Below are positions 1,443 through 46,640 of a stretch of 64,000 bases of DNA, in pieces. Location of the stretch: IMG/VR virus record IMGVR_UViG_3300012007_000009, positions 1 through 64,000 of that record, one strand, 5' to 3'. Origin of the DNA: a virus (lineage: Duplodnaviria; Caudoviricetes). The position numbers and the translations under genes are program-made. Positions within the stretch are counted from its first letter, which is position 1; each line of letters opens with the position of its first letter. Under the pieces are notes generated by a model that made no database searches, was not told the DNA's origin, and saw nothing but the letters and a program-made list of their open reading frames with translations.

Positions 1443-2726
1443 ATGGCTGGAAAACTCCTGCAATCTATAGACGACCACGAACTCTACGCGAAATACGCCG
1501 CACACGCGGGCAAGGACATCAACGGCGTGCCCCTCGAGGACAGGGAGATTCTCTCCGCGGAAGTCTCCGGGAACACGCTCACGCTGGAAGCGACTACCGG
1601 CAGCACGGCGGTAAACGTCGTGCCTTCCCCGGAAGCGCCCGACCTTGTCCTCAAGTCAACCGGCGAAGGGCAGTACGCATGGTCGGCTTCCTCCGAATAC
1701 CCCGGGGAAGGCAGGCTGAAGCTCGGGCTTGGTACCGACGCTCCCGTGTTTACCGGGTTCGACGCGAACTCCTCCGAGGACGTCACCGTGACTATCCCGG
1801 GAGCTACCCGGGAAAAGTTCGGCGTCATGTCCCCGGAGGACAAGGCCAAGCTGGACGGGATGGCGTCCGGAGCCACCAGGGTGGAATTCCTCGATACGAC
1901 AAAGAACGGCCAGATAGCAGTCAACGGGATAGACAGTACCGTCTATACCCACCCGGCCCCGATGCAGTCAATCGTCCCGCCCGGCCTGTACAAGTTCAAG
2001 GCCGACAAGATGGGCCATATCCAGGAAGTGTACAAGGTCAAGAAGGAGGACATCGTCGCGCTGGGCATTCCTGCTCAGGACACCACCTACGGCAACCTCC
2101 CGGAAGCCGAGGGAGGCGAGGACGTTTCCCTGGTACGCACGGGTGACAAGTACGGGTGGAACCGGAAATACGCGAAGCCGACCGCCGGCATTCCCGCAAG
2201 CGACCTCAGCGACCAGGTCAACGCTTCGCTGGGCAAGGCCGACACCGCATACCAGAAGCCGGCCGGGGGTATTCCCGAGGGCGACCTGGACAACTCGGCA
2301 AGGGCCAAGCTGGACGGAGCTATCCAGGGAGTCGCCATAGGGGACGACGACCCAATCCCACCCGACGCGAACAACGTGGTACGGCTACCGCGGGAAAGCG
2401 TCGTGAACGACGGAAAGCTTTCCATGATACTCGGCACGTCGGCAGCGCAGCAGATATTCTCCGCCAACGAATCGAATGACGTATCGTTCTCCGTGCCGCT
2501 TGCATCGATGGACAACTCCGGGAGTTCCCCGGTATATACCGAGGGCCTCGTCGGAAGGGCGATGTACGAGAAGGTAGACGGTATAGAGGATGGGGCGCAG
2601 GAGAACTTGATTGAGGAAATCAAGGTCAACGGCACAACCCAGCCAATTACCAACAAGAGTATCGACATCGACCTAGGCACCTGGACATCAGGTACATACA
2701 ATATCCCAGCTGTTGCGACCCCATGA
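1443..2726 (+). CDS. Tail fibre-like / virion structural protein
   Basis: Motifs common in phage fibre proteins (GVMSPEDKAKLDG, YTHP, GLYKFKADKMGHI, DIVALGIPAQDTTY). Start moved to ATG 1443, downstream of the ATAAACT motif. Confidence 0.6.
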   Translation: MAGKLLQSIDDHELYAKYAAHAGKDINGVPLEDREILSAEVSGNTLTLEATTGSTAVNVVPSPEAPDLVLKSTGEGQYAWSASSEYPGEGRLKLGLGTDAPVFTGFDANSSEDVTVTIPGATREKFGVMSPEDKAKLDGMASGATRVEFLDTTKNGQIAVNGIDSTVYTHPAPMQSIVPPGLYKFKADKMGHIQEVYKVKKEDIVALGIPAQDTTYGNLPEAEGGEDVSLVRTGDKYGWNRKYAKPTAGIPASDLSDQVNASLGKADTAYQKPAGGIPEGDLDNSARAKLDGAIQGVAIGDDDPIPPDANNVVRLPRESVVNDGKLSMILGTSAAQQIFSANESNDVSFSVPLASMDNSGSSPVYTEGLVGRAMYEKVDGIEDGAQENLIEEIKVNGTTQPITNKSIDIDLGTWTSGTYNIPAVATP

Positions 2727-3352
2727 TTTACACGGTAGGTTCTTCAAAGAATACATTCCTTCCACTTGACAGTTTCCGCAAGAAGTTCCTCGTGGACAGG
2801 AAGCACAAGGGGTCCAACATAGACAGACTGAACCCGTACTACTGCGAGCTCACTGGCCTGTACTACATGTGGAAACACGAGAAGGATTCCATAGTGGGAC
2901 TCGAACATTACAGGCGGTACATCTACAGGGACGGGAAGATGATTACCAGGGAAGCCGCGGAGGACATACTTGGTAGGAACGACATCATCCTGGTTCCTTA
3001 CAGGCATCCACGCAAGAGGACCACTTACGAGTGGTTCATCACGGCAAACAAGCTGGCTGACATCGACAAGTGGATACTGTGCATTGACCGGGCCTGCCCG
3101 GGTTTCCTACAGGTATTTGCCGACTACATGAACAGCAACCGTCTTTACATATGCAACATGTTCATCAGTTCGAGGAAGGTCATGGATGCATGGTGCTCCT
3201 GGCTATTCCCCATGCTGTCGCTGTACGACAGGGCTGCCGGCCTGGCCGAATCCAACAAGAGAATAGACGGCTACCTGGCCGAGCATACTCTTGGTGCCTG
3301 GTGCATGTGGAAGGGACTCCGCATTGCGGAGTGCGCCATGCATATGCCATAA
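2723..3352 (+). CDS. DUF4422 (GT111-like) glycosyltransferase
   Basis: NIDRLNPYYCELTGLYYMWK, VGLEHYRRY, CNMFI and RIDGYLAE are DUF4422 signature motifs. ATGA overlap with the upstream gene. Confidence 0.85.
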   Translation: MIYTVGSSKNTFLPLDSFRKKFLVDRKHKGSNIDRLNPYYCELTGLYYMWKHEKDSIVGLEHYRRYIYRDGKMITREAAEDILGRNDIILVPYRHPRKRTTYEWFITANKLADIDKWILCIDRACPGFLQVFADYMNSNRLYICNMFISSRKVMDAWCSWLFPMLSLYDRAAGLAESNKRIDGYLAEHTLGAWCMWKGLRIAECAMHMP

Positions 3353-3355
3353 AAC

Positions 3356-3386
3356 AAGAAGCCGGGAGCACGGCCCCCGGCTTCCT
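3356..3386. terminator. Hairpin between convergent genes
   Basis: GAAGCCGGG...CCCGGCTTC stem. Confidence 0.65.
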
Positions 3387-3412
3387 GTCCATTTCGCCTT
3401 TGGAGTTAAGTT

Positions 3413-5080: not shown

Positions 5081-5122
5081 CGTTATTCCTAGACATTTCG
5101 GTTTGTTACTGTTTTGCTAAGG

Positions 5123-5133: not shown

Positions 5134-5152
5134 AAAAATGCAGCTCCCGGTG

Positions 5153-5159: not shown

Positions 5160-5189
5160 TCCGTAAAATTTTCTCCGGACGGTTGCAAT

Positions 5190-15928: not shown

Positions 15929-16624
15929 CTACCTACCTAGAATCTGTATCAAATCGTCGACCGACGGCGGGTCGTACCTCTCCCCCGGAACCAGTTCAAC
16001 CAGTCTCCGGCCCCCGACCGCCGTATGGTACATCGCCATCGAGTGCAGGTATCCCCTCCTGCAGTCGCCCAGGTGGACGACCGTGGGGCATGTCCTGTAC
16101 AGGGCGGAAAGAACCGGGAGACCAGGCGACGGCAGCAGCTCGACCTCGTTGTCCGCCGAAAGCTCCCCGGCCACGGCCTCCGATATGCCAGTATTGCCGG
16201 GAATCGCGACGGCTACCCGCTTGCCCTCCAGGCCTGCCGCCGCAAGGGCTTCCTTCCAATCGGCACCGGCCGGGCACCTTCCCCCGACCACGGCGTCATA
16301 CCTCGCCGATGCCGGCATGCGGCACATGTCCTCCGGGCGTAGCGGGTATCCCGGCAGGTTCACCGTGCACCCCGGGATATCCCCGAGGCCTACGCGGAGT
16401 ATGCGCCGTTCCTTTATGGCGTATTCCAGGCCGTCGTGTATCACGGCGCAGGTGACGTTCGCCCCGGGAGGGACGACGCACTTGCCGTCCGCTGCCTGCA
16501 CCAGGCAACCCAGGGTGCTCCCCGGGAACCAGTATTCTCCCCCGACCCTCCCGGCTACCGCCATGGAGATAATGTCGAGCTTGGAGTCCCACTCAGGGCG
16601 GGTATCCCTTACGAAGCAGCGCAT
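15929..16624 (-). CDS. Hypothetical protein, possibly a degenerate GT-B glycosyltransferase
   Basis: LSALYRTCPTVVHLG..GYLHSMAM resembles the GT4 C-terminal motif. Very GC-rich. Confidence 0.4.
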   Translation of the reverse strand: MRCFVRDTRPEWDSKLDIISMAVAGRVGGEYWFPGSTLGCLVQAADGKCVVPPGANVTCAVIHDGLEYAIKERRILRVGLGDIPGCTVNLPGYPLRPEDMCRMPASARYDAVVGGRCPAGADWKEALAAAGLEGKRVAVAIPGNTGISEAVAGELSADNEVELLPSPGLPVLSALYRTCPTVVHLGDCRRGYLHSMAMYHTAVGGRRLVELVPGERYDPPSVDDLIQILGR

Positions 16625-17649
16625 TCTTCCCGTGCCCTCCCGTACCATGCGGCTATCCGCCCGGTTATTTCCGACGGCATGTTCGGTATATGGCTGAGCA
16701 CGTCGTCGACGAACTCGACGATTCCCGCCGCCCCGTCCTCGTTATATACTGCCGTGAGAATCTTGTCGATGTCCATCTTCCCGCTGCGGTCGATGTCGTA
16801 TATCGTCGTGTCGATGTGCAGGGTGGTGCCGCGGACGATTTCCCATATGAGCTGAATCTCCAGCCGGCCCATCTTCTTGTACTTGTCGACAAGCTCCTCC
16901 ATGCTGGCCTTCTTCGCAAGGTAGTCGGAGAAGTCCTCGTCGGACATGCGGCGGACGCAGGCGCACATGACCCTGTTCCTGCGGTAGTTCGGGCTTTCCA
17001 GGTAGGCGTCCGTGTTCACCTTCGGGTGGAACATGTGGTAGGCGGCAGCGGTCGGGTCCGGATTTCGGCGGATTTCGGCCCCGATGCGGCGGAACTTGAA
17101 CATAAACGTGTCATCCTCCGCTCCCCAGCCGGTAAAGTCCTCGTCGAATCCGGCAACCGCATCGAAGGTATTGCGGGTGAACGAGTTGCACAGGCCCGTC
17201 TGTCTGCGGAGAGTCACCCCGTGGTCCTTGTCCCCTCGGAATATGGTACCCGTAGTGACAAGGCGCTTGGTGTCGACCTCGTCCAGGTATAGGGTGTCTC
17301 CGTACGGGAATACCAGGCGATTGTCCCCCGTGTTGGCGATGACGTAATCGGCCAGCTTGCGGGTGAAGTACACGTCGGCATCGACCATGACGTATCCGGA
17401 ATACCCGGGATTGGTGAGCACCGCCCGGTTAAGCAGGGAAGACTTCCGGAAGCTCCCGGTATCCTCTATCAGGGTATGGTTCGCCTGGGCGTTCAGGGTG
17501 GAGAACCATTCTCCGTTTCCCTGTTCGATTACGAGGTGGTCGGCTTCCGGGAATGTGTCGAAAACTGTGCGCATGCAGGCCTGGAGGTTCCTTCTCCGGT
17601 ACTTGTCGCCGGTGTCCTTGAATGCGGTAATTGCGAGAAATTTCTTCAT
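16609..17649 (-). CDS. GT-A glycosyltransferase (GT2 / GT7 C-terminal-like)
   Basis: VIEQ, DAD motif, GFDEDFTGWGAEDD, HMFHP. Confidence 0.88.
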   Translation of the reverse strand: MKKFLAITAFKDTGDKYRRRNLQACMRTVFDTFPEADHLVIEQGNGEWFSTLNAQANHTLIEDTGSFRKSSLLNRAVLTNPGYSGYVMVDADVYFTRKLADYVIANTGDNRLVFPYGDTLYLDEVDTKRLVTTGTIFRGDKDHGVTLRRQTGLCNSFTRNTFDAVAGFDEDFTGWGAEDDTFMFKFRRIGAEIRRNPDPTAAAYHMFHPKVNTDAYLESPNYRRNRVMCACVRRMSDEDFSDYLAKKASMEELVDKYKKMGRLEIQLIWEIVRGTTLHIDTTIYDIDRSGKMDIDKILTAVYNEDGAAGIVEFVDDVLSHIPNMPSEITGRIAAWYGRAREECAAS

Positions 17650-17726: not shown

Positions 17727-20711
17727 ATGCCTTTCAACGGTATATACAATCTCCGCGACGCCAACGAGAGCGTGTCCCTGAAGCCATGGCAGATTCAGGA
17801 GATTAAGAAGTGCGCGAAAAACCCGATATACTTCATCAGGAACTACGTATATATCAACACGAAAGACTACGGGATGCAGCTGATGAAGACCTATCCGTTC
17901 CAGGACGAAGCCATCCTTAGGTTCCTGAAATACCGATTCAATATCAACAAGTGGTCGCGCCAGGTGGGTAAATCTACCATAGTGAGGGCATATATCCTGT
18001 GGTACGCCATGTTCCACAAGGACAAGCTGGTGGCCATGCTGGCAAACAAGCTGATGCTCGCCAAGGAACAGCTCCAGCTTCTCAGGGATTCGTATGTTGC
18101 GCTTCCGTTCTGGCTGCAGCCGGGCGTGAAGCTGTGGAACAAGATGAGCATCCAGTTCAGCAACGGATGCCGTATCATGGTCGCAGCTACTTCAGGAGAC
18201 GGTATCCGTGGTTTCTCGCCCAACCTCCTGTACCTGGACGAATTCGCGTTCCTCCGCCCGGGAATGGCCGACGAGTTCATGGCTTCCGTGATGCCGACCA
18301 TTTCCTCGGGTAAAACAACCCGTATCATAATCACCAGCTGCGTTACCAAGGATACTATGGTATTCACGCCGGACGGTATCAAGACCGTGGGCGACTACGT
18401 AATAGACGATGGCCGTGTATTGGGCTACGAGGTACCGGAATACCAGGTGCTCGGGCGTTATGGCATGAACAAGGGTCATGTGATGCACAATGACGGGGAC
18501 GAAAAGGAAACCCGCATCGTGACCACCAGGCTGTCGGAAGTGGAAACATCCCTGATGCACAAGTTCTGGACATGCCGGGATGGAGAATACAAGATTCGCC
18601 GAGCCCACGAGCTCAAGGTGGGTGACTATGTCATGGTAAAGTACGGCATGAACTGCTGGGGGAACGATAGGATTGACTTCGATGATAGTAAGAAGTCAAA
18701 ATCCAGGAAATTTACTTTTGGACATTTAACCAAAATTACTGAACAGATAGCATATTTATTTGGATTATATATCGCCGAAGGTAATATAAACACTAATCCA
18801 CGTAACAAAAGTTTAATTATTACCTGTGGTGATGATGTCTCATCAATTTTTGAAGAACTTGGTCTTACGTTTTATAAGCGTGATAAGTTCCATTATCAAA
18901 TATCATCAGCTAGCGTATATGAACTATTCGAATATATTGGGTTTGACCCGACGCGTCACGCAAATACAAAAATAATTCCTTCGCGCCTTATGCAAATGTC
19001 CAAAGCATGTACATCCGCAATGCTTCGCGGTATGTTTGATGGTGATGGTTGTTCCACTAAAAAACGAAAACGATTAACATACACCTCCACATCAAAACGT
19101 CTTATTGACCAATTACGAGTTCTCTTATGTAATTATGGTATCTTATGTACGGTAAATCATCGAATCATCAAGCCTACAAAGCGGGTAAAAGTAACAAGTG
19201 AAACATGGACTATTGAAGTAAATCAGCAAGCAATGGTCGATTTGTATTTCAAAGAAATTGGATTCGGATTTAAGCGTAAACTTGATACAGTCCTTACACA
19301 GGTTCAACGGAAAAATAGACCAAGCCGTTATGACTACATACCATATGCGGCTCCTATAATTCGCCAGTTAAAAAAAGAAAAAGTACTGACTAATCGAGAA
19401 TTTAAGCTTACCGGTGGAATATGCGATAAGCACGATATTCATCTAAACCGTAAGTTGATTCTTAACATTAAGGCAAAACTTCCTGAAGAAATCTGGTCGA
19501 AATATGATATATTCAAAAATGCCGAGCCGGATTGCGTATGGACACCTATTACCAAGCTTACAGCGTCACATAATAAAGTGTACGATTTCTCCTTAAATGA
19601 TGATAATCCGGGTGGGCAAGAATGGTCACATTCAGTTGTACATAATTTGATAGTTTGTCTACAAACCCCTAATGGGTTAAACCACTTCTACAACATGTGG
19701 CAGGATGGTGTTGATGAAAATACAGCAACACCCCATGAACTGCAGTCAAAATATGTCAGGTCCGCCGTTCTATGGAACGAGGTTCCCGGGAGAGACCCGC
19801 AATGGGGCATAGACGAAGAGGCTCGTATCGGAGAACAGAAATTCCGCCAGGAATACCTGTGCGAGTTCGTCGGTTCAGCAACCACGCTTATCGACTACAA
19901 GACCCTCCAGCACCTGCACCCCGTACCTCCCATGAAAATACCGGGAGTTCCCAAAGAGTATTCCCTCCGTGTCTTCTCTCCACCTCTCGCGAAGCAGCTT
20001 GTCGAAAAGGAGGACTGGTGCTATGTCGCCGCGCTTGATACCGGTTTCGGCATGAGGCAGGACTATCACGTCCTCCAGATACTCCTGGCCAAGACCTCGT
20101 GCCGTGCGGAACAGGTGCTTGTGCTCTCGTCGAACGAAGTCACCGTGGAGGACTTCTGTTCCATGGCCGCCAGCATACTCCGCATGTACGGCAACCCGCC
20201 GCTCACCATCGAGTACAACGGCGGCTCCGGCATGACCGCCCACAAGACGATGTTCGAGAAGCTCGGATACGACAACCTCATCAACTACGACAAGTACTTC
20301 CGCGGTATATACTCGACCAACCCAATCAAGACCACCGCGGTCATGCTCCTGAAGCTGTACGTACAGAGGGGATACCTCACCCTGAAGGACGAGAAGACAA
20401 TCAACGAGCTGATGAGCTTCACAAAGCTGAACCAGTTCACCTGGGGTGGCAGCGGAGGAAACCACGACGACCACGTGACCAGCCTTTACTGGTGCGTGTA
20501 CTTCATGGAATCCGGGTGGTTCCCCGGCAAGCACGAGGACATCCAGTTCCTTGACGCGATGGAGATAACATTCGCAGGTGGCGAGGTCAGGAACGACATG
20601 ACTGCCGCCGTACTTACCGGGGCGGACCCGGTAGCCATAAAGGAGCAGCAGGCAATCGCCCACCTGGAAGCGACCCGTCCTGCTGGAGAAATGGTGCCCG
20701 TGCCCGGTTAG
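17727..20711 (+). CDS. Terminase large subunit (T4 gp17-like), intein-containing
   Basis: SRQVGKST, YLDEFAF, IIITS|TPNG, FRQEYLCEF, DTGFG, HDDHV. Confidence 0.95.
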   Translation: MPFNGIYNLRDANESVSLKPWQIQEIKKCAKNPIYFIRNYVYINTKDYGMQLMKTYPFQDEAILRFLKYRFNINKWSRQVGKSTIVRAYILWYAMFHKDKLVAMLANKLMLAKEQLQLLRDSYVALPFWLQPGVKLWNKMSIQFSNGCRIMVAATSGDGIRGFSPNLLYLDEFAFLRPGMADEFMASVMPTISSGKTTRIIITSCVTKDTMVFTPDGIKTVGDYVIDDGRVLGYEVPEYQVLGRYGMNKGHVMHNDGDEKETRIVTTRLSEVETSLMHKFWTCRDGEYKIRRAHELKVGDYVMVKYGMNCWGNDRIDFDDSKKSKSRKFTFGHLTKITEQIAYLFGLYIAEGNINTNPRNKSLIITCGDDVSSIFEELGLTFYKRDKFHYQISSASVYELFEYIGFDPTRHANTKIIPSRLMQMSKACTSAMLRGMFDGDGCSTKKRKRLTYTSTSKRLIDQLRVLLCNYGILCTVNHRIIKPTKRVKVTSETWTIEVNQQAMVDLYFKEIGFGFKRKLDTVLTQVQRKNRPSRYDYIPYAAPIIRQLKKEKVLTNREFKLTGGICDKHDIHLNRKLILNIKAKLPEEIWSKYDIFKNAEPDCVWTPITKLTASHNKVYDFSLNDDNPGGQEWSHSVVHNLIVCLQTPNGLNHFYNMWQDGVDENTATPHELQSKYVRSAVLWNEVPGRDPQWGIDEEARIGEQKFRQEYLCEFVGSATTLIDYKTLQHLHPVPPMKIPGVPKEYSLRVFSPPLAKQLVEKEDWCYVAALDTGFGMRQDYHVLQILLAKTSCRAEQVLVLSSNEVTVEDFCSMAASILRMYGNPPLTIEYNGGSGMTAHKTMFEKLGYDNLINYDKYFRGIYSTNPIKTTAVMLLKLYVQRGYLTLKDEKTINELMSFTKLNQFTWGGSGGNHDDHVTSLYWCVYFMESGWFPGKHEDIQFLDAMEITFAGGEVRNDMTAAVLTGADPVAIKEQQAIAHLEATRPAGEMVPVPG
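18339..19664 (+). mobile_element. Intein (442 aa) with LAGLIDADG endonuclease
   Basis: Starts CVTKDT and ends VCLQ before T+1. Removal restores IIITSTPNG. Contains LFGLYIAEG and LRGMFDGDG. Confidence 0.92.
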
Positions 20712-30627: not shown

Positions 30628-31770
30628 ATGGCGACCAAGACTAGAAATGGCAAGGTAGAGTCCACTTCGGTTGACTGGCGCTCGGGCGCCCAGGCATCCA
30701 ACATGATGGGCACTACATACCGCAATGCACAGATTGCCAGCAAGGACCACGTAGGCCTCCTCGATTACTATATGCCAAAGTTCTACTCCATGGCCCGCGG
30801 CCATGTCATCAACAAGTACCATGTCGGCCTTTACGGGCCGTATGTCGATGAGGCACTGCGCGTGATGGACCAAAACTCTATAGGCGACAAGTATGACTAT
30901 AACCGGACCAAGCCTTTCCCGGGAACAACGGACAACTTCAGGAAGACGTTGTTCGACCAGTGGCTTTCAATGTGCTACGAGAAGGACACCGGGGTGCTGA
31001 ACATGTTCTGGGCGGCAAAGTCAATATCAATCAACTCGCCTACTGCCACTACGCAGAATGTAATGATGGATACTACCAAATCAATGAGTTATCCGGTCAT
31101 AACATCGATTAGTTGCGAAAACACTATGACCATCGAAGTGATTGATGACCCTTATCTGATGTGGTACAACTTCTTCAATGCGCTTTTCAACGTGCAGTTT
31201 TCCCCACTCTTGCTGAAGCCGCGCAGCACGCTGCAAAAAATCAACGTAATGGTTGAATTGCTTACCGAGGGCATTACTGTCGGGAATTCGATGAAATCAA
31301 TCGAGGAACGCGAGAACGGCAACCCCTGCATGACGGACGCTGTGATTGGACAGATGTTTGAATTCAATTCCTGTATCACGACGAAGTCACCCGCAATCAA
31401 CCCGAATTACGAGAGTTCCAATCCTTACAGCTTCCAGGTAGAATTGGAATACCCAAATGCTTTCCAGGGTACATTCAAGGACCAGATGAGATACCTGAGG
31501 GACAACACGACTCGCGGGGTCGACCCTTCAAAGCAAAAGGCCGGCGGAGAAACCGGTTGTGAACAGTCGCTTAAACCTGCCCGCTGGAATCCATACGGCG
31601 ATTACAATGTGGGGTTCTTCGAGGCTACACGTAAATACTGGATGGATTCATATGACACGGCAAGGTATGAAGCATTCCAGCCAGCGGTATACATGAAGTA
31701 TGCAAGAACCGGGAAATCCGCTTTCCCGAATGTAAAATACAATTACGATATGCATGGAAAGAAACGCTAG
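30628..31770 (+). CDS. Tail tube-fold / baseplate-associated protein
   Basis: AKSISINSP, MTIEVIDD, FQVELEY pattern; position next to the baseplate cluster. Confidence 0.4.
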   Translation: MATKTRNGKVESTSVDWRSGAQASNMMGTTYRNAQIASKDHVGLLDYYMPKFYSMARGHVINKYHVGLYGPYVDEALRVMDQNSIGDKYDYNRTKPFPGTTDNFRKTLFDQWLSMCYEKDTGVLNMFWAAKSISINSPTATTQNVMMDTTKSMSYPVITSISCENTMTIEVIDDPYLMWYNFFNALFNVQFSPLLLKPRSTLQKINVMVELLTEGITVGNSMKSIEERENGNPCMTDAVIGQMFEFNSCITTKSPAINPNYESSNPYSFQVELEYPNAFQGTFKDQMRYLRDNTTRGVDPSKQKAGGETGCEQSLKPARWNPYGDYNVGFFEATRKYWMDSYDTARYEAFQPAVYMKYARTGKSAFPNVKYNYDMHGKKR

Positions 31771-31775: not shown

Positions 31776-32816
31776 CTATGCCTTAATGAGCGTTTCCATC
31801 CTTTGGCCAAGGTCAAGTTTCTTGTCGCCGTATCGCTCGACCAAGTCGCAATATTGCTTGTGCAGCTTGATGTTTGTCTTGGTTGAAGGTATTTCCGAGA
31901 TGAACTCATCGTATAGCGTAGTTACCGGTTCCGCCATAAATTTCTTGCACTTTCCGTCAAACGACGAAACTGCCCAGCATGAATGCAACGGGGTGTAGTA
32001 TACGCCATCCCTGGAATACCGTATTTCCCGCGGCAGGTTTTCCGGCACGCACCACATCCTGGTCCTGTCGAACCGGCCGGCTATATAATCAAGATACTGG
32101 TCTACCCTGTTGTCCATGATGATGACTTTTCCGGGTATGTCCCGGCTCGTGATATATTTCTTGGCCGTAGCCTGGTCGACCGGAGCAACTGTAACATTGA
32201 ACATGTTCGCCAGTGCCATGCAAATCTCGTGGAACGAGTGGTCGGGCCTGTAGTAATACTCGTTGTAGCTCTCGTTGGCCAGTTCGCCTAGAGGGAACTC
32301 ATAATCGAAGCCATACATGGTGAGGTGTGACAGCTGTGTCCCGCGCCAGCGCGTAATCTGCATCGCCCGGCAAAATGTCTCGATGAACGCGCTCGGCATT
32401 ACGCTTTTCAGCGTAGTAACCAATTTCGACGGCGGGTTTGCCTTGTTGGTAATGACATCCTGTACCTCCGGCTTGGAAAACGCCTCAACGCATTCCTTCC
32501 ACTCGGCCTCGTCAACGAACGCCTTTTTTGACAGGGGATACTGAATTACGCCGTTGGTGCTGTTCTTGATGGCTACCTTGTCGTACGGTATGTAGAAGAA
32601 CCTCGGGTTGGCAAACTCCCTGTATGTTATGAGTCCGGGCAGCAGTATATCCAGCACATCCTTGTACCTGGACGACACGAGGTCGCCGTAATCGTCAAGG
32701 GGTGCGCCGACCGGCGCCGTAGCGAGTAGTTCAACTTCGTTTCCCTGGGATGCCTGGCTGACCGCCTCCATCACCGCATCCATCGTGTACCCAACAATAT
32801 ATACCTTGCCGCTCAT
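31776..32816 (-). CDS. Divergent UDP-galactopyranose mutase (Glf)-like protein
   Basis: Collinear similarity to Glf: VYIVG, QYPL, KVIIMDNRVDQYLDYIAGRF (cf. IIYTGPIDQYFDY.FG.L), NIKLHKQY..L...LGQR. GxGxxG is degenerate. Confidence 0.65.
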   Translation of the reverse strand: MSGKVYIVGYTMDAVMEAVSQASQGNEVELLATAPVGAPLDDYGDLVSSRYKDVLDILLPGLITYREFANPRFFYIPYDKVAIKNSTNGVIQYPLSKKAFVDEAEWKECVEAFSKPEVQDVITNKANPPSKLVTTLKSVMPSAFIETFCRAMQITRWRGTQLSHLTMYGFDYEFPLGELANESYNEYYYRPDHSFHEICMALANMFNVTVAPVDQATAKKYITSRDIPGKVIIMDNRVDQYLDYIAGRFDRTRMWCVPENLPREIRYSRDGVYYTPLHSCWAVSSFDGKCKKFMAEPVTTLYDEFISEIPSTKTNIKLHKQYCDLVERYGDKKLDLGQRMETLIKA

Positions 32817-33244
32817 ATTATAGATGCATCCTTCTGTATAAATGGTAAAATGTACTTTTCTAGCCAGTATTCATCCGGGAACTCAAATATCATGTCGATG
32901 ACCTTCCCCTCGCCATCGGTGAATATGTTCACCGGTGCAAAGTCAACATGAATGTCATCAAGTATCGAGCTCGTCGACGCCTCGTCATCCACCACTATGC
33001 GTACTCCCCTCGTGGGGTTTTCGAGAAGACCGTGCTTCCCGAACCAGTTGTACATAGTCTCGATTCCGTGCTTGCATACAGGACATTCGTCCTTGGCGTT
33101 GTAGAAGCTATATACCCACATTATTACCCGTTGGCTGCTGGTAGTGTTCTTGTAGGCATCTAGGCCATATTCCAGCAGCCGGAGGCTCAGCGGTTTATAT
33201 ATTCCGTCTATATCGACCGGTTTTCCACAGCACGGCTTGGGCAT
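32813..33244 (-). CDS. Thioredoxin-fold protein
   Basis: FYNAKDECPVC plus cis-Pro-like FAPVNIF. Confidence 0.6.
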   Translation of the reverse strand: MPKPCCGKPVDIDGIYKPLSLRLLEYGLDAYKNTTSSQRVIMWVYSFYNAKDECPVCKHGIETMYNWFGKHGLLENPTRGVRIVVDDEASTSSILDDIHVDFAPVNIFTDGEGKVIDMIFEFPDEYWLEKYILPFIQKDASII

Positions 33245-33287: not shown

Positions 33288-33953
33288 TCAGACAGAAACG
33301 GAACCCTTGAACAGGCCGCGCGTGTTTTCCTCGTTGAATATCATCCAGTTTACCGAATGCCGCTTGCACCATGCCTCGGCAGCGGCCCACTTGGCATAGT
33401 TGGTCGCCACATCCAGACTCTTTCTCTGGTAGGTTGCCATTCTGCGCTGGTAGGAGGCTATCTTCTTCTGGTCCTGGCAACCCTGCGGAAGGGGTTTCGG
33501 CGGGACCGGGACAACGGAATATGCTACCGGCTTAATCTCAACAAGCCACTTCTCGACATGGCCGTCATCATACGCTATCTCCAAGTATATATCGGGCTTG
33601 TACAGTGACTGTTTCATATATACCGGGGAACTGTACGGTATGTCGAATGGCTCATATGCCCATTTCAGCACACGCTCGTTCCCGTCGCATAGCACACAAA
33701 ACCGCCGTTCCCAGTCCGACTTGTAATTCACCACTATATCCGGGACTTCCGCTTCCGTGCCATCCGGCATCGTGCGGCGAACCATGGTAACCTTGGTATC
33801 GGGTAGCCGCATGTACTTGTCCGGGTTAATCACGTGGTACGAACCCTTCCGGCAATCGCTGTAGTAACTGTGCTTCCGGCTCCTTATGAGCTTTGGCCGA
33901 GACTCGGTATCCGTCCCGGCCGAACTGACTGACTTCCTGCTCCGCCTACCCAT
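33288..33953 (-). CDS. Head completion nuclease (T4 gp4 / TnsA N-terminal-like)
   Basis: NPDKY, YKSDWERRF, KWAYEP..IPY, YKPD, LVEIKP, NYAKW.AA. Confidence 0.85.
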   Translation of the reverse strand: MGRRSRKSVSSAGTDTESRPKLIRSRKHSYYSDCRKGSYHVINPDKYMRLPDTKVTMVRRTMPDGTEAEVPDIVVNYKSDWERRFCVLCDGNERVLKWAYEPFDIPYSSPVYMKQSLYKPDIYLEIAYDDGHVEKWLVEIKPVAYSVVPVPPKPLPQGCQDQKKIASYQRRMATYQRKSLDVATNYAKWAAAEAWCKRHSVNWMIFNEENTRGLFKGSVSV

Positions 33954-33956: not shown

Positions 33957-35849
33957 CTATCCCGCGGTTGCGTACATCCTGGAGTAATAGTCAGCCAAGC
34001 TTTCCCCGTTTCTCTGGGATGTCCAGATGATGTTCTGTATGCGCAATACGCGCGCCTTCTCGTAATCCGATTCAACGGAGTAGTTGGCCAGGCGTTCTTC
34101 CTCGTCCATTTTTACCGGGGCCCTCCCGGTAGGCTTCGGGAAATTGGTTTCGAAACCGCCGTTGAAGTTTGCATCCAGCCCACTGGACTTCCCGCGTACA
34201 TCACGCAAAGCCTTGACGGTATTGTTGCTAATCTTAAAGAGTCCGGCAAACCGCAGGAACTGGTACCACTTTTCGGTAAAGTAGGAATCCTCCTCGCACC
34301 CATCCGCTATTGACAACCCGATTGCCCTGAGCGACTCATCCTCCTGTGATGTCAGCGGCTGCTTTCCCACATTTATGTCGTTCTCCCTATCCGGGGAATC
34401 GGTAAACTCGGCAGCATCGCGTACCGGGTCAGTTTCGGTCAGGCTCTTGCCTTCCTGCCCATTACGGAATAGGTCGACATTCCACGCGATACCTCCGGTA
34501 CCGTCAAGGCCGTACGTAACCTTTGCCACGGAGACTTTATTCTTGGCGCGGCTGTTACATGTGCGCAGCCTGTCATACAGGTCATCCCACATGCCCGCCA
34601 GCTCATCGAGAGTATACCCGTCCCCGTTCTCGCTGTATCCCGCATCGTATGCGCTGTCGGCACGCATACAGCACAGATAGATATCGGCCTCGAACGCACG
34701 GTTCCAGAATTCCCCGGTCAGCTGCAGTTCCTCGTTGAATTTCTTTACCTTGTTCTTGATTCGCTCGGACAATGCCGGACACGGATACTCAAGGCAGTTT
34801 ACCCACATTTTCATGCTTTCCATCATGTCCAGTATGCTCATGGTGTATACCGTCTTGCCATCGTCGACTTCCTTTGTATATAAAAGGAGACAGTCGAGAT
34901 GCGACGTCCTTAGCGGGGAAATCAGGAAAGTCACATCCCATTTCTTACGCAAGAACATGGCATACTGCTTGATAAGCCAGCGGAACGGATATATGAACAG
35001 GGTAAACAGGCTATCTATCGCGAGGCTTATTGCGTCAAACATCAGCACCAGGTATTGCTTGATGTAATCATCCATTATGGCACTCAGCCCGGTGGCCAGA
35101 TTCAAACCGTCGATAAACCAGAATTTATCCCGAATGCAGAATATCACCCTATCCGGCTGGTCGGATATGTTATTCCCGTCGGCATCCTCGTCACAACCGG
35201 TTACATATGCGACAAACCGGCATACGCACGGGCACTCCCTCAGGAATCCCTCTAGTGAATCCCAGTCGAAATTAAGAGAAATCTTCAGTGCGTCGGTAAG
35301 GAACTTTTCAATCATGTCATATACATCCAGGATGCACTGCAGTACGGCATCGGTCAGCGCCTTCAGGGCGGATTGCATGCGTTCCCTGGCAGTATCTATC
35401 TTGTCGAATAACGCAAAGGCCGCCTTCGCTATCATTTCCAGCCAGGAATTCACCGTGCCGAATATCGAGGCCACCACGTCGCATATCTTCTTGGTAACAG
35501 AATTGTTCTGTACGAAGTCGCCGATGGCAACCCCGGTGGAAATAGAATTTATCGCGCTTATTACCGAGTCAATTCCTTCACCAACGGTCTTCAGGCCCGG
35601 GCATACCTTATACATCCATTCAAGGAGGTGTTCGGAACAGTCGTATTGGTACAGCGACGTTGCCGCGGCGTCAACCTTTCCCGCCGCACGAATGACAGAG
35701 TCAAGGAAATCACCATCGTCTTCCTCGGTAGTTGCGGTTAGGGAATTTGTCGCGACGTCAGTATCGCGCGTGACCTGCTTTCCGTTACTCCCCTCGCCTC
35801 CGGCATAGTTCGCACCATTTATTACTTCTTCGCAAGTCTTGACAGCCAT
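33957..35849 (-). CDS. Cys-rich helical hypothetical protein in the baseplate operon
   Basis: 630-aa ORF with many Cys; coupled to the upstream gene. Confidence 0.65.
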   Translation of the reverse strand: MAVKTCEEVINGANYAGGEGSNGKQVTRDTDVATNSLTATTEEDDGDFLDSVIRAAGKVDAAATSLYQYDCSEHLLEWMYKVCPGLKTVGEGIDSVISAINSISTGVAIGDFVQNNSVTKKICDVVASIFGTVNSWLEMIAKAAFALFDKIDTARERMQSALKALTDAVLQCILDVYDMIEKFLTDALKISLNFDWDSLEGFLRECPCVCRFVAYVTGCDEDADGNNISDQPDRVIFCIRDKFWFIDGLNLATGLSAIMDDYIKQYLVLMFDAISLAIDSLFTLFIYPFRWLIKQYAMFLRKKWDVTFLISPLRTSHLDCLLLYTKEVDDGKTVYTMSILDMMESMKMWVNCLEYPCPALSERIKNKVKKFNEELQLTGEFWNRAFEADIYLCCMRADSAYDAGYSENGDGYTLDELAGMWDDLYDRLRTCNSRAKNKVSVAKVTYGLDGTGGIAWNVDLFRNGQEGKSLTETDPVRDAAEFTDSPDRENDINVGKQPLTSQEDESLRAIGLSIADGCEEDSYFTEKWYQFLRFAGLFKISNNTVKALRDVRGKSSGLDANFNGGFETNFPKPTGRAPVKMDEEERLANYSVESDYEKARVLRIQNIIWTSQRNGESLADYYSRMYATAG

Positions 35850-37096
35850 CAGTAAGTACCCTCCAGTGACTTCAAGTTGGTGTATGCCAGGAACCTGATG
35901 TCGACGGGGTTCGACGGCATGTATGCTATGACTTCAATTTCATCCAGCTTCCCGGCCTGCTTCACGTGGTTGACTACATCGAGGAATTTTTCCATCTGGT
36001 AATCATTTATGTTACCGTCGCCGTAGAATACGATACTTACCGCATCCATGCTTGGCTTGCCACGCATATCGGACCCAAGGGTCGCATCGAACGTGATGTC
36101 GGCGCACTGGACGAAACCTCGGTTGGTTGCCTTGGACTTGTCTTCCAGTGTCGCCAGTACATCGGGGTCGCCATCGGCTACACCGATGAGATAATGTGCG
36201 CAGTTCTTGGCACTGTCATCGGTGTAGTTTGACAATATTTCGGCCAACGGGGTTGTCAACCCGGTCGCCGACAGTATAATGCGCTTGTTTACCTTTGCAC
36301 TGCGCGACTTGGCTGCCGGTGATTCCATGAACGGGATTTCGTAAGTGCTGGACCTACCGACTATCTCCTTACGCTGCTGGCCATCAATTTCGGCATCCTT
36401 GGTTCCTTCTACCGCCGTTCCCGTAGAGCCACCGTTACCGCGCAACGTGTCGATGGTGGACCTGGAAATATGCGGCACCCGGAGATATTCCGAGCCGGAA
36501 CGCAGGGCGTTCTCGGCACTTCCCACCGGCTTGCACGTAAATATGTCTATCGTGGCTTCAGTCAGTACCGACACCGGAGCTATACCGGCCTCGTCGGACG
36601 CATTGGCCGAGTTCAGTACAACTTCCCCGGCGGCATTCCAGGAAATCTCTGAATTGTTGCCGGGGTTCCTGGTAGTCGATATGTGTGAGCGCCGATTGTG
36701 CGTATACAGGTACCCGGTTTCGCCCATGTTAAACACGGCAACATCCGGATATTCCCCGACATATTCTTCGGGCAAAAAGTTCTTGGTTGCCGATAGTCCA
36801 AAATACATACCCTGGTTGATATCGCCATCAATGAACTTGACCAGCAGCCAATGTCCCTTCTGCGGGACCTGCTGCATGCCGGTAGTCAATTCCGGGGCAA
36901 ACCAGGGCTGCATTTTATCCGGCCATTTATCGGTTACTCCACTGACCCGAGCCTGTACATGGCCGGCCCTATTCGGGTCAACCGACGTTCCCACAACTTG
37001 CGCATAGTAGCGGGGGGAAGTCAGCGGCCCCGGCTTCTTGTACACAATAGAATAGGCAGTTTCCCATGGAAACTTGAAATCGGGAGACGATATCAT
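35849..37096 (-). CDS. Baseplate hub/spike protein (gp5-like OB fold) with amidase_2-like C-terminal domain
   Basis: DPNRAGHVQARV..PW...VP..G.W..V.F.DGD; then RIIL..., AHYLIG, Q..FL pattern. Confidence 0.65.
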   Translation of the reverse strand: MISSPDFKFPWETAYSIVYKKPGPLTSPRYYAQVVGTSVDPNRAGHVQARVSGVTDKWPDKMQPWFAPELTTGMQQVPQKGHWLLVKFIDGDINQGMYFGLSATKNFLPEEYVGEYPDVAVFNMGETGYLYTHNRRSHISTTRNPGNNSEISWNAAGEVVLNSANASDEAGIAPVSVLTEATIDIFTCKPVGSAENALRSGSEYLRVPHISRSTIDTLRGNGGSTGTAVEGTKDAEIDGQQRKEIVGRSSTYEIPFMESPAAKSRSAKVNKRIILSATGLTTPLAEILSNYTDDSAKNCAHYLIGVADGDPDVLATLEDKSKATNRGFVQCADITFDATLGSDMRGKPSMDAVSIVFYGDGNINDYQMEKFLDVVNHVKQAGKLDEIEVIAYMPSNPVDIRFLAYTNLKSLEGTY

Positions 37097-42425: not shown

Positions 42426-42489
42426 AGGTTACACTCCAAAACAACAGTTTATATACCGCAAACCGCAAAACCGAGGGGAATTTGATATA

Positions 42490-42978: not shown

Positions 42979-43005
42979 AGTTCACCAAATATAGCAAACT
43001 CGAGT

Positions 43006-43170
43006 TTATAGCGTTTCGAGTTCGCTTCCGCGGTCGGGTACATAGTGCGTCGCGTTAAATCGCATGCGTGCATACTTGACCAGCTCCAGGAATTCCTGAA
43101 AGAACATCTGGTCGCAGTCATGGAAAGTGTTGCAGGTCATCTCGGATATGATGCACTTGTCCTGTATCAT
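43006..43170 (-). CDS. Small baseplate hub assembly protein (gp51-like)
   Basis: 54-aa ORF directly after the gp26-like gene. Confidence 0.35.
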   Translation of the reverse strand: MIQDKCIISEMTCNTFHDCDQMFFQEFLELVKYARMRFNATHYVPDRGSELETL

Positions 43171-43180
43171 TTCACGCTTG

Positions 43181-45007
43181 CTATAGCGAGGCCACATACG
43201 AGTAGAATCGAAACGGATACGGCTGTATCGCCGTGCCTCCGCATTTCGGACATTTAATCGATACCTTGGTGGTAGATACGACTTGGGCCCCGGTAACCGC
43301 CTTCAGCAAGTCGCCCTTGGCGTTCAACGGATACTCCTCGATGTACTGCACCTTGTCGGTCATGCTATCGCAGTCCTCGATTTCCACAATAGCCGCTATG
43401 CTGAGCGGAAGGTTCTTGTACTTCGGGAACACTTTACCGTTGGCATTCTCCCACCCATCGATGTATTCGTTGATGATGCGGTCGTGCTTCCTCCTGCGGA
43501 GATATATGTCGCATTCCCTGCCGTCATACGTGGTGAACTGCACATACCCGTTCTCCGCATGCATGGCCGCGGTTTCCTCCGGTGGCCGTTCCGTGCTGAA
43601 ACTCAGGTCCATGAAGGTAATGTTTGGCAACGCGGACATGGTATCATACCTGGTGTACTTGCTGTTGCAGTGCTCGCATACGAACGGTACCTTCGGCAGG
43701 CCGGTATCGGTCTCGCTGTAGGAAGACGCCCTGAGCCAATACATAAGGTATTCCTCGTCCGCGGTAAGTATGTCTTCCGGCGATATTCCGCGTATACGCC
43801 TGCCGAGAATCGTGGTCAGTGTCGTGGTGATATCATCGGCGTCGGTATCGCTCAGCATGAACGCGTCGACGGTCTTCAGGGCCTGGCCGTATCCTTTTTC
43901 ACCGTAGAACAGCCCCTTCGACGGCCATCCCGTAATCTCGGTGAAGGCCTCGAAGTCCTTGTCCGGCCTTGCCGGGTCGAACCGGGGAGTTGCCTGCTGG
44001 ATAATCGGCGGTTCCTTGGCCACATACACGGACTCGACGTGCCTGTCCATCCCGGGAATACCGGTATCTACCGACTGTACCGGGGGAACGACCGCCGAGG
44101 CCTCCGTATACGCCGTCCTGGCATCCGGTACGGAAGCCGGTTGCAGCGGAACACTCGGGTTCACCTGCGGAATGGGGAATTGGGGATTCACCTGCGGCAT
44201 GACCGGCTGGGTGAACTGGGGATTTACTTGGCCGTACCCGGGAAATCCCTGGCCGTTGATTGATGCTCTGGCATACATGGCGGAAACCTCGGCATCCTGA
44301 ATATCGGGTGACTGTGGACGGGGAGCTTCATGCTGAGCAGCTGACAACCTGGCGTGCTGTGAGGCCCAGTATCCAGCTTCCGGAGTCTGTACCTGCCCAG
44401 GAAGGGCCTGCGGGGCCATCATGTTCGGGTCATTCATCCGTTCCCTTGCATATTCCGGGGAAGGTTCCGGCCGGGAAGGCATCTGCGGATTGTTTCTCCG
44501 TGCATCGAATGCACCCGGGTGCACTGTCTCGTTCCGCTCCAGGAATCCGTCCCGGGCCTGGGCGCTGCGGGACTTGACCATGTTGATGAGGTCGATGTCG
44601 GCCTGTGTGAGGGCGCCATTGGGCTCGATGACCGGTATCGCCGGCGATGCCTCGATTGGCTTCCTGGGAGCCTCGGTAAATTCGTTTGGTGTCACCCTGG
44701 TGGCTTCCTGCTTCTTCATGCCCTTCTTCCCTCGCTTCTTTACAGCCTTCTGTTCGACCGCTGACGGCTGTTCCTGGAATTCCCCGGGAGCATCTCCCGC
44801 TACGAGAGCAGCCCTCCTGCGCTGGGCAATCTCGTTCTTCCTCTCCATGTCCCTTGCGAGGTCTTCCCGTTCCTGCTTCATGGTATCGGCCAGTTCCTTG
44901 TCCCCCGTGGGTAGTCCCATGGAAGCCTGTGCGGCAGCTGCCGACATTCCCTGCATCAGGATATTGCGTGTTTCTTCGTCGTATTCGACGGATGGATTCT
45001 GGTTCAT
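43181..45007 (-). CDS. Baseplate hub assembly protein (gp26-like) with long disordered N-terminus
   Basis: WPSKGLFY, D..YL.Y.LR..SY, CEHC and CPKC in the C-terminal half; P/Q-rich N-terminal half. Confidence 0.65.
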   Translation of the reverse strand: MNQNPSVEYDEETRNILMQGMSAAAAQASMGLPTGDKELADTMKQEREDLARDMERKNEIAQRRRAALVAGDAPGEFQEQPSAVEQKAVKKRGKKGMKKQEATRVTPNEFTEAPRKPIEASPAIPVIEPNGALTQADIDLINMVKSRSAQARDGFLERNETVHPGAFDARRNNPQMPSRPEPSPEYARERMNDPNMMAPQALPGQVQTPEAGYWASQHARLSAAQHEAPRPQSPDIQDAEVSAMYARASINGQGFPGYGQVNPQFTQPVMPQVNPQFPIPQVNPSVPLQPASVPDARTAYTEASAVVPPVQSVDTGIPGMDRHVESVYVAKEPPIIQQATPRFDPARPDKDFEAFTEITGWPSKGLFYGEKGYGQALKTVDAFMLSDTDADDITTTLTTILGRRIRGISPEDILTADEEYLMYWLRASSYSETDTGLPKVPFVCEHCNSKYTRYDTMSALPNITFMDLSFSTERPPEETAAMHAENGYVQFTTYDGRECDIYLRRRKHDRIINEYIDGWENANGKVFPKYKNLPLSIAAIVEIEDCDSMTDKVQYIEEYPLNAKGDLLKAVTGAQVVSTTKVSIKCPKCGGTAIQPYPFRFYSYVASL

Positions 45008-45282
45008 CGTGTTACCTCTCCAATTACGTATGTGTACCGGGGCCCGGTATACCTGGACCCGTTGGCCAGGGTTATGTCCACCTGTTCCCCCTTGGCGGCG
45101 GACTCGTTGAGCCTAGCCACCTCGACCTTGCATTCCTCGGGGTCGTCGTACTGCTTCTCGAACGCCTGGGGAGCGGCTACATTCCCGTCGCTGTATGAAC
45201 GGGAACGGCCCGGACGTTCCGGGTCGGCCTCGAGACTCAGGTTGTCGTACTTCACTACGCAGTACTTGGTCTTCTGTTCCAT
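45004..45282 (-). CDS. Hypothetical protein
   Basis: 92-aa ORF coupled to both neighbours. Confidence 0.6.
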   Translation of the reverse strand: MEQKTKYCVVKYDNLSLEADPERPGRSRSYSDGNVAAPQAFEKQYDDPEECKVEVARLNESAAKGEQVDITLANGSRYTGPRYTYVIGEVTR

Positions 45283-45284
45283 GC

Positions 45285-46640
45285 CTAGTTACCGTCGGCT
45301 GCCTTCTCGGCATCCTTCTTCTTGAGTTTCGCCATGCCCTCGTCGAACCTGGACTTGAGGGCGGTGCTGACCTTGCGGCCCAGCATGGAGTGGAAGTAGC
45401 CGGCCAGAACCTTGGGGTCGGAAACCAGCCGGTGTTCCATCATCGTCCTCTGCTTGGTGTAGGCCTCGTCCCAGTTGGCGACGATTCGCCATTTCTCAAT
45501 CATCGCGGACAGTTCCTTGACGCTAGTGTCCTGGCCGAAAACGAAATCCTTGCCGCATTCGTTGCAGATGTGCACGCCCGGCTCGAAACCCGCCTCGGCA
45601 ATCTGCGCGAACACTACGGAACCCGCTGAAATTGCAAGGATTGCGTCGGTGTCGGCAATGGTGATGTTGTAGATGTCCTCGTCGACGTGCTCGGGCTCGG
45701 TAAGGATTACAAAGTCGAATCCGGCATCGCGTTCCATTGCCATGGTCTCGGCGGCGTTCTTGGCGGTGACATATGGGTTGGCCCAGTGCATCACGTGCCT
45801 TACGAGAGGTCCTTCCTTCTTGCTGCGCGGACGGAGAAGCTCCATGAGGCGCGGGTCGAGGTCGGATACGGTAGAAATGGTGAAGTCGTACTCGTCTGTG
45901 CCGTGGATGATGAAGTTCTGGACGTTCTGGGGAATGTCGGTTCCCTTCACGAGAATCTTCGGCCTGCGGATTGCGGTGAAACCGCCCTTGGACTTCAGGA
46001 ACACCTTGTGAGTCGGGTAGAACTGGCTCGATACGAAGGACGGGATGATGACCACGTCCTTGTCCTCGGACACGAGGCCAAGCTGGACGATTGCAGTACG
46101 CAGCTCGTTGTTAGGGACGACCACGGTATCGGCATAGTCGAGACAGTCGGCCACCATCTTGGCTTCGATGATTGTCTTGTTCCTTGCCGCGGGAGCGTCC
46201 CACACGAACTCGTCGAGAGCGTAGACGACCCGCAGTGTCAACGAACGGAACTCGTTAGCGCTCTGCATGAACTTGTCGTACTCGTCGGCATTGCCCTTGA
46301 GCTTCTCGGCCTCTTCCTTCCAGCCCGGGGCGACCCTGTCGAATGCGGCACGCATGCTGGACATCATCAAGTCGTTGAACTCCCTGTTGATGACGTTGTC
46401 CACCCACACCACGCTGTACCCGGAAAGGTCCGGCTTTGTACGGCAGAACGTCTTGCTGTCCATCGTGGTCATGGTGACCTCGGCGATGGTGCTGTAGAAG
46501 TTCTTGAACTGCTGCATTGCGTTGTAGCCGCGAACGCAGGAGAGACGCGAAGTGTCGTCCGTCACGTAGAGGACGTTGAATTCGCGCTTGGTCTCAAGGA
46601 TTTGGTTAATCCGTTCTTCGATTTTCTTGGTAAAGTCCAT
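45285..46640 (-). CDS. GT-B (GT4-like) glycosyltransferase homolog, motifs degenerate
   Basis: VVYALDEFVW, ADTVVVPNNEL, VVIIPS, RPKIL pattern. Confidence 0.5.
   Translation of the reverse strand: MDFTKKIEERINQILETKREFNVLYVTDDTSRLSCVRGYNAMQQFKNFYSTIAEVTMTTMDSKTFCRTKPDLSGYSVVWVDNVINREFNDLMMSSMRAAFDRVAPGWKEEAEKLKGNADEYDKFMQSANEFRSLTLRVVYALDEFVWDAPAARNKTIIEAKMVADCLDYADTVVVPNNELRTAIVQLGLVSEDKDVVIIPSFVSSQFYPTHKVFLKSKGGFTAIRRPKILVKGTDIPQNVQNFIIHGTDEYDFTISTVSDLDPRLMELLRPRSKKEGPLVRHVMHWANPYVTAKNAAETMAMERDAGFDFVILTEPEHVDEDIYNITIADTDAILAISAGSVVFAQIAEAGFEPGVHICNECGKDFVFGQDTSVKELSAMIEKWRIVANWDEAYTKQRTMMEHRLVSDPKVLAGYFHSMLGRKVSTALKSRFDEGMAKLKKKDAEKAADGN

Follow-up and report, generated by a model that had tools for sequence, protein, structure and literature searches.

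We analysed the first 64 kb (the window) of a 160,790-b IMG/VR virus record (IMGVR_UViG_3300012007_000009; G000), an uncultured phage contig estimated by CheckV to be ~44% complete, and found that the glycosylation-related genes dispersed along it are, to judge from their sequences and their order in related phages, four independently conserved modules and not one pathway. The first module is a core glycosyltransferase of GT-B fold (GT4-like) lying directly after a gp47-like nuclease gene; the second, an apparently intact GT-A glycosyltransferase divergent from the terminase, followed by a 231-amino-acid (aa) partner; the third, a CPxC protein followed by a homologue of UDP-galactopyranose mutase (UGM, Glf) at the end of the baseplate operon; and the fourth, mobile genes of glycosyltransferase family GT111, which here end two putative late operons. 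An original prediction, made from the letters of the window, had joined five of these proteins into a phage-encoded galactofuranose (Galf) pathway acting on the virion. Our analysis indicates that its Glf-like protein is, by sequence, a flavin-less pseudoenzyme, homologous to UGM and not a maker of the donor UDP-Galf; we refer to it as pseudo-UGM.

The source is, on the evidence of its genes, a divergent T4-like jumbo phage, as indicated by a T4-type large terminase (TerL; ~31-33% identical to the TerL of T4-like cyanophages and of a rhizobiophage), a long tail sheath, a gp5-like hub, an SbcD/gp47-like gene and the sizes of the related records (253-355 kb, at estimated completeness of 91-99%). 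Synteny was assessed by tblastn of the window proteins on 30 related loci and in five whole relative records, and the distribution of Glf and GT111 was surveyed in 17 related records. All of these relatives are metagenomic fragments, and absences are therefore weak evidence; likewise, a family not listed in a search is not thereby excluded. Neither single sequences nor profiles of the Glf-like protein, the GT-B-like protein and the 231-aa protein found a match in the PDB; their folds were therefore predicted, and the AF2 models made for pseudo-UGM and for the large GT-B protein were compared with known structures by Foldseek and VIA.

Pseudo-UGM (31776..32816, minus strand; 346 aa) is the last gene of the baseplate operon. 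It has no Pfam match of its own, nor was there a GLF match anywhere across the 160-kb contig. Its AF2 model (pLDDT 87.7) found UGMs as its best Foldseek matches (E 3.9e-9), and VIA superposed 304 of its 346 residues at Z 18.4 and rmsd 3.9, the top 15 entries all being UGM/UNGM and the protoporphyrinogen oxidases following next. Furthermore, a profile built from 30 members of the family aligned by hhalign to a profile of seven true UGMs with a probability of 98% and E 1.5e-13 over 235 columns; the seven-UGM profile was needed for this, the comparison with the single E. coli Glf sequence being too weak (probability 1%). Two divergent relatives, P0167 and P0162, match Pfam GLF directly, the former with 29.6 bits against a cut-off of 26.3. 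The presence of a Glf-like protein in a baseplate operon, as originally predicted, was thus upheld by fold, by profile and, through the gp5-like hub and synteny described below, by location. The family comprises 41 representatives among 1.84 billion proteins and had no match in GenBank phages; 46 columns are invariant across 35 sequences, and the protein appears from its sequence conservation to be under strong purifying selection.

The conserved fold has, by the same alignments, lost the features of a flavoenzyme. Where UGM has GxGxxG, every family member shows G-[YHD]-[ST]-x-[DE]-[AS] (GYTMDA in the window protein); the acidic residue that closes strand 2 has been lost, and after this strand both E-K-R and HIGGN have been replaced throughout the family, with T and A standing for E-K-R in the window protein; H.YG.H.FH has gone; and the protein ends where the GRL..Y.Y.DM motif and the last helix of UGM begin. 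This loss of the FAD fingerprint holds in all 20 divergent members. Of 71 columns that do not vary among four true UGMs, no more than 9 persist in 80% or more of these 20 members, and none of the nine is a flavin or catalytic position. What has been kept is the Trp of KQW-G, whose position is that of the uracil-stacking Trp of UGM, the D of PID-Y..DY (within a D-Q-Y-x-D-Y..G segment), the Pro of NLPF and a few Gly and Pro residues. The equivalents of E. coli R174, R278, Y311 and Y346, which we take to be the substrate-binding arginines and tyrosines of UGM, were kept in none of the 20 members (alignment A4). At ~15% identity, single positions in the alignment of pseudo-UGM to UGM may shift by one residue, whereas the loss of whole motifs is independent of any such shift.

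UGM chemistry is flavin-dependent (PMC3624792), and because the flavin and catalytic positions have been replaced, pseudo-UGM should be unable to make UDP-Galf. The simplest role for it would be that of a non-catalytic partner binding nucleotide sugars or glycans, or of a structural protein. The earlier suspicion that three of the five proteins are degenerate therefore holds for the Glf-like protein, its FAD and catalytic positions being replaced, and does not extend to the GT-A enzyme, whose motifs are intact.

The operon that pseudo-UGM ends is headed by an ATAAACT element at 42446-42452 on the minus strand. This heptamer occurs at 20 sites in the window against 5 expected (for example at 1407, 17655, 42446 and 55018), mostly just 5′ of structural genes and often in facing pairs, a distribution consistent with a late-promoter element. 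The gp5-like baseplate hub (35849..37096, minus strand; phrog_430 hub/tail lysozyme, E 8.6e-6; phrog_37871) and the tail sheath share this strand run, and across the 30 related loci the order gp5-like hub, 630-aa open reading frame (ORF), TnsA-like gene, CPxC gene and pseudo-UGM is constant. The CPxC protein (32813..33244, minus strand), whose gene overlaps that of pseudo-UGM in the ATGA manner, lies directly 5′ of pseudo-UGM in every case, the pair being kept even at 40% identity; C54, C57 and P104 are invariant (alignment A5). It is thioredoxin-like by motif only, and searches of Pfam, PHROG and PDB profiles gave no support for a thioredoxin fold. The TnsA-like endonuclease-domain gene upstream (33288..33953, minus strand; Pfam Tn7_TnsA-like_N, E 2e-12) was considered as a mobile insertion and ruled out as such, its position being fixed in 28 of the 30 loci.

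Directly after pseudo-UGM, 19 of the 30 loci (L007-L023 among them; for example L008:11046-11819, plus strand) carry a gene for a protein of ~257 aa with DED and HWGGED motifs, including all eleven of the closest loci (56-80% identical at pseudo-UGM). One of ten members gave a weak Pfam GT2 match (E 0.003), and hhalign aligned the family to the GT-A enzyme of the window over the WGxED..H..HP region with E 0.011. This protein is thus a probable small GT-A by sequence, a fold not confirmed by Pfam, PHROG or PDB profiles. In the minus-strand run of the baseplate operon, the tail sheath gene (50805-54983) is unusually long at 1392 aa, and its sheath-family match is confined to the last ~400 residues.

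At the left end of the window, a fibre-like late gene (1443..2726, plus strand; PHROG tail-protein matches at E 6e-9 and 5e-8) precedes the first GT111 gene; its ORF is open from 1365, and its probable start is 1443, 3′ of an ATAAACT at 1407-1413. The glycosyltransferase gene (copy 1; 2723..3352, plus strand; 209 aa) begins with an ATG that overlaps the fibre-like stop as ATGA. Its product matches the DUF4422 family of Pfam (PF14393) with E 2.4e-41 and 142.4 bits (cut-off 25) over profile positions 38-217 of 220, and WbbM (6U4B_A) with E 1.7e-11 in two aligned stretches, the YCELT..Y..WK/HYRR and NMF segments, so that a DUF4422 glycosyltransferase coupled to a fibre-like late gene was found just as originally described. 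WbbM of Klebsiella pneumoniae O2a is the founding member of the family, and 6U4B is its solved structure (Clarke et al. 2020). A second copy, 42% identical to the first (DUF4422, 121 bits), lies outside the window (G000:106741-107298), where it closes a plus-strand operon that has ATAAACT at its head (L048:6001). In agreement with the original annotation, DUF4422 corresponds to CAZy GT111, whose sole characterised member is a UDP-Galf transferase (PMC12269835), and the product of 2723-3352 is accordingly predicted to be a galactofuranosyltransferase.

Among the 17 related records, GT111 was present in eight, in 0-3 copies, with three in G004. In G003 (G003:224597-226192) and G004 (L046:3694-6084, minus strand), GT111 genes adjoin a C5-cytosine DNA methyltransferase gene with an intein of its own; in G004 this gene is directly 3′ of a tandem GT111 pair, and such genes were found only in these two records. 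No cultured phage in GenBank carried a DUF4422 domain, the sole matches being 11 unannotated short faecal contigs. On the other strand beyond GT111 copy 1 lies one of two ~550-aa AAA+ ATPase genes (3413-5080 and 14051-15700, both minus strand); this first one has clamp-loader PHROG matches and, in its C-terminal part, a weak match to the VLTF3-like poxvirus late-transcription-factor family (E 0.006).

The GT-A glycosyltransferase (16609..17649, minus strand; 346 aa) gave a Pfam Glyco_transf_7C match with E 7.4e-10 and 38.8 bits (cut-off 23), matched phrog_1721, a galactosyl transferase family, and aligned to chondroitin synthase and beta4GalT across the WGxED region. A DAD motif at residues 90-92 follows a hydrophobic strand (VMVDADV), and GWGAEDD and HMFHP are also present. 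The GT2/GT7-like enzyme expected beside the terminase is thus present, and it looks catalytically intact by its motifs. Its homologues stand beside, and divergent from, TerL in four of five relatives, in three of which (G002, G003 and G005) the 231-aa partner comes next.

In the window the gene of this partner (15929..16624, minus strand) shares 16 nt with the end of the GT-A gene, stop codon included; homologues of 221-241 aa have the same M start. Its sole fold support is a low-confidence Atlas model (pLDDT 0.55) that matches GT-B families at TM 0.43-0.47; it had no Pfam, PHROG or PDB match, and hhalign against the GT-B family returned a probability of 0.35. It is possibly one half of a GT-B Rossmann pair. 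The neighbouring TerL gene (17727..20711, plus strand; Terminase_6N, Terminase_6C, LAGLIDADG_3, Intein_splicing) is split between Terminase_6N and Terminase_6C by an intein that contains a homing endonuclease of the LAGLIDADG type, and the TerL proteins of relatives align as two pieces at the same site.

The larger GT-B protein (45285..46640, minus strand; 451 aa) is a core gene, located directly 3′ of an SbcD/gp47-like nuclease subunit gene (46720..47886, minus strand; phrog_100, E 6.7e-49; Metallophos, E 6.8e-10) and within the strand run that starts at the sheath gene. Searches of Pfam and of PDB sequences and profiles assigned it to no sequence-level family. Foldseek matched its AF2 model (pLDDT 88.4) to SenB and BshA at E 1e-8; VIA gave Z 21.4 to 7qsg, a GT4 mannosyltransferase, and 20.9 to BshA, with 304-311 residues aligned, a Z of ~20-21 to BshA and SenB together, and Z 18.8 to T4 alpha-glucosyltransferase (AGT) over 324-328 residues (rmsd 3.9-4.1), the longest alignment among those listed. 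In BFVD it matched generic viral group-1 transferases, including a few DNA alpha-glycosyltransferases. A complete GT-B fold with two facing Rossmann-like domains was thus confirmed at the level of the predicted fold. A fold-level match, on which the original prediction had staked its Glf-like and GT-B-like proteins, was accordingly found for the Glf-like protein and for this one; of the two proteins proposed as GT-B-like, the 231-aa protein is the one for which the claim reduces to the low-confidence model above.

No EX7E motif is obvious by eye in the GT-B family, although Y324 and D332 are invariant at the expected place. The invariant polar residues of the family (D28, S31, R37 and G38; K232 and G233; E303, R304 and D305; D332) would, in the model, follow the opening strand of either Rossmann half or mark the beginning of a helix, which are donor-binding places in GT-B enzymes. 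The order gp47-like gene, GT-B, 92-aa ORF and 608-aa ORF recurred in five of five relatives. The 608-aa protein (43181-45007, minus strand), encoded two genes after GT-B in the relatives, is rich in Pro and Gln in its central part and has, close to its C-terminus, two CxxC pairs resembling a Zn ribbon; it was considered as gp46/SbcC and ruled out, having no Walker A motif.

A source of UDP-Galf has to be sought elsewhere in the genome or in the host. Canonical Glf was encoded in 6 of the 17 related records (those named are G002, G003, G004, G008 and G011) as proteins of ~400 aa with NAD_binding_8 and GLF domains at E ~1e-59 to 1e-68 (E 3e-63 for a 398-aa ORF). Of these, G011 has a completeness of 99%, and G008 shares 72% identity with the window at pseudo-UGM; the 18 kb around the G008 Glf has no counterpart in this contig. 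Glf and GT111 occur together in four records (G002, G003, G004 and G011), whereas G001 (91% complete) has GT111 and no Glf. If the missing half of this phage encodes no Glf either, UDP-Galf would therefore have to come from the host. Co-occurrence in related phages, proposed earlier as a check, was thus seen for Glf with GT111, while the modules as such are conserved separately; likewise, the idea of a phage Galf pathway survives at the level of the family (Glf in 6 and GT111 in 8 of 17 records) and fails for the window protein, which cannot supply the donor, and for the view of all five genes as one system.

Two further arrangements were observed around canonical UGM genes. In G004, an NAD salvage pair, with one gene for a nicotinate/nicotinamide phosphoribosyltransferase and one for a NUDIX/cytidylyltransferase-like protein, lies ~7 kb from Glf (L047:9070-11789, plus strand). 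In cultured Straboviridae, canonical UGMs are located directly after motA in the early region (Aeromonas phage AS-gz, L004:4992-6056; Erwinia phage FBB1, L006:4992-6056) and are followed by uncharacterised proteins of ~320-350 aa.

Collectively, our findings lead us to favour, tentatively and with somewhat less than even confidence, the idea that the active transferases would glycosylate tail, fibre and baseplate proteins of the virion late in infection. GT111 would add Galf from UDP-Galf, a donor that would be made either by the Glf of the host or by a canonical Glf that the phage encodes in its missing half. Pseudo-UGM would be an accessory that binds UDP-sugars or glycans without catalysis, or a structural protein, with the small GT-A coupled to it in most relatives. 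We favour the virion because of gene placement, in that the GT111 copies, one of which overlaps a fibre-like gene, end operons headed by ATAAACT, the baseplate operon finishes with the pseudo-UGM module and GT-B lies in the sheath-led run; such placement in putative late operons favours a virion-protein acceptor, as the original prediction had preferred. We also favour it because of a precedent in mycobacteriophages (Che8 and cluster O), whose virions are reported to be glycosylated by transferases with genes adjacent to structural ones (Freeman et al. 2023, PMC10527164).

Several observations weigh against virion glycosylation. The lateness ascribed to ATAAACT is itself a putative reading, and the GT-A gene has no such element on its own strand. 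The position of GT111 differs between relatives, in which the genes are not beside fibre genes, and the coupling seen here may thus be incidental; moreover, the one GT111 that has been characterised takes an O-antigen intermediate linked to lipid, and not a protein, as its acceptor (PMC12269835). GT-B adjoins a DNA-recombination nuclease gene and is structurally as near to T4 AGT as to many GT4 enzymes. This contig has no gene for the ~257-aa protein, its convergent stops at 31770 and 31776 being only 5 bp apart, and the function of pseudo-UGM is therefore not strictly dependent on the small GT-A. The 160-kb contig, ~44% of the genome, also encodes no match to GLF, to a GalE-type epimerase or to Pfam GT2. 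Finally, the phage is uncultured; the glycan and its donor, the acceptor, expression late in infection and what the pseudoenzyme does are all read from genes.

A further proposal, which we regard as possible but doubtful, is that the UGM fold has been turned into a flavin-less protein of the baseplate operon that binds UDP-galactose or UDP-Galf, or Galf-bearing glycans, together with the CPxC protein as a redox partner and usually a small GT-A. Such a protein would present donor or acceptor to a transferase glycosylating the virion, or would act in the virion as a lectin for Galf-bearing host surfaces. If true, the UGM fold would have been exapted here for the first time, and this protein, phage GT111 and the canonical Glf encoded by relatives would together make up the first galactofuranose system directed at the phage particle.

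We consider it unlikely that the enzymes remodel the host envelope by adding Galf or Gal to lipid- or wall-linked glycans (O-antigen, capsule or teichoic acid), a moron-type function that would mask receptors, block superinfection or keep progeny off debris. The N-terminal GT111 domain of WbbM does build O-antigen on undecaprenyl diphosphate (Und-PP; PMC12269835, PMC11294581), and polysaccharide assembly typically employs folds of the GT4-like GT-B and GT2/7-like GT-A kinds. The variable copy number and location of GT111 are those of an accessory gene, and its co-occurrence with canonical Glf in the four records named above would suit this explanation. However, GT-B and pseudo-UGM are core and not accessory genes, the genes in question lie within structural and late gene runs, and it is hard to see what a lytic jumbo phage would gain by this late in infection. 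No flippase, polymerase or Gtr-type membrane gene was noticed nearby, a point on which no systematic scan was made.

Less probable again is DNA hypermodification, in which GT-B would be the counterpart of T4 a-gt and, with or without the other transferases, would place a hexose, possibly Galf, on a modified base. The genomic setting invites this comparison: T4 a-gt directly adjoins genes 47.1 and 47, and GT-B adjoins the gp47-like gene in six of six records; yet GT-B is downstream of gp47 here, whereas a-gt is upstream in T4. Similarly, T4 AGT gave the longest structural alignment, and the DNA transferases of RL38J1, DLP3 and RB69 match the same PDB entries as GT-B (7qsg, 3mbo, 6kih and 5ze7; PMC13326640), but GT4 enzymes outscore AGT structurally and hhalign found no sequence relationship between the GT-B family and AGT (probability 0.1). 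The RL38J1 UGM has been proposed as a supplier of UDP-Galf (PMC13326640), and in Pootjesviridae a phage UGM has been connected, in a report of 2026, with galactose-bearing 5-hydroxycytosine (PMC13326640); C5-cytosine methyltransferase genes also lie beside the GT111 pair in G003 and G004.

We weigh a DNA acceptor down because no enzyme making a hydroxypyrimidine was found. A thymidylate-synthase-fold protein (PF00303; dCMP hydroxymethylase/5hodCMP synthase) was absent from G000, G002, G003 and G004 (93% complete), these records being incomplete, and the PF00303 protein of G001 scores 418 bits, like an ordinary ThyA. No Tet_JBP match was obtained, although the control was silent and the result is thus uninformative on oxidation of 5-methylcytosine. 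The transferase and pseudo-UGM genes, moreover, occupy sheath and baseplate strand runs, whereas in Straboviridae the canonical UGM genes belong to the early region around motA.

It is improbable that there is no toolkit at all, with pseudo-UGM, GT-B and the 231-aa protein being structural or assembly parts and only GT111 and GT-A being enzymes, in minor and unrelated roles: the lost cofactor site of pseudo-UGM, the want of a Pfam glycosyltransferase match or obvious EX7E in GT-B, the standing of all three as core genes among virion genes and the inheritance of five dispersed genes as separate modules would fit, but the invariant polar residues of GT-B fall at donor-binding places as placed by secondary structure, the motifs of GT-A and GT111 are intact, and the canonical Glf and extra GT111 copies of relatives make sense only with sugar transfer.

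Phages are known to glycosylate DNA (T-even phages and Pootjesviridae), the O-antigens of their hosts (temperate phages) and, in the case of mycobacteriophages, the virion; sets of phage glycosyltransferases and phage UGMs are thus already known. As far as our literature and database searches reach, GT111 in phages, a conserved flavin-less UGM-fold protein of the baseplate operon and the modular picture are new. Galf is absent from mammals. Should virion glycosylation be correct, Galf would decorate the particles of abundant phages, with a bearing on adsorption and immune recognition, and pseudo-UGM would in any case offer a clean case for studying the reuse of a flavoenzyme scaffold.

Compared with known systems, pseudo-UGM is closest to bacterial UGM (E. 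coli 1I8T and M. tuberculosis 4RPG; Pfam GLF PF03275 with NAD_binding_8), sharing the same three-domain fold over residues 1-342. It is ~20-50 residues shorter and lacks both arginines (R174 and R278) and the YYP tyrosine; bacterial UGM is a gene of polysaccharide loci, whereas pseudo-UGM is a core late gene ending a baseplate operon. The GT111 domain of WbbM is matched directly in sequence, with near-full Pfam coverage in 2723-3352; WbbM, however, has a GT8 partner domain, while the phage-encoded protein stands alone at 209 aa and its two copies end late operons.

T4 a-gt (GT72) is like the GT-B gene in fold and in its adjacency to gene 47, and differs in having no sequence relation to it and in lying on the other side of gene 47. 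In Pootjesviridae a UGM is likewise linked to glycosylation, but the UGM homologue here is, by its motifs, inactive, and no enzyme hydroxymethylating or hydroxylating a base was found in the family. The mycobacteriophage system, in the account cited above, uses other transferase families and has no counterpart of pseudo-UGM, and ours is a T4-like jumbo phage of Gram-negative type known from its genes alone. The two nevertheless have in common that phage transferases are encoded among or next to structural genes, and the virion decoration shown for mycobacteriophages is what we propose here.

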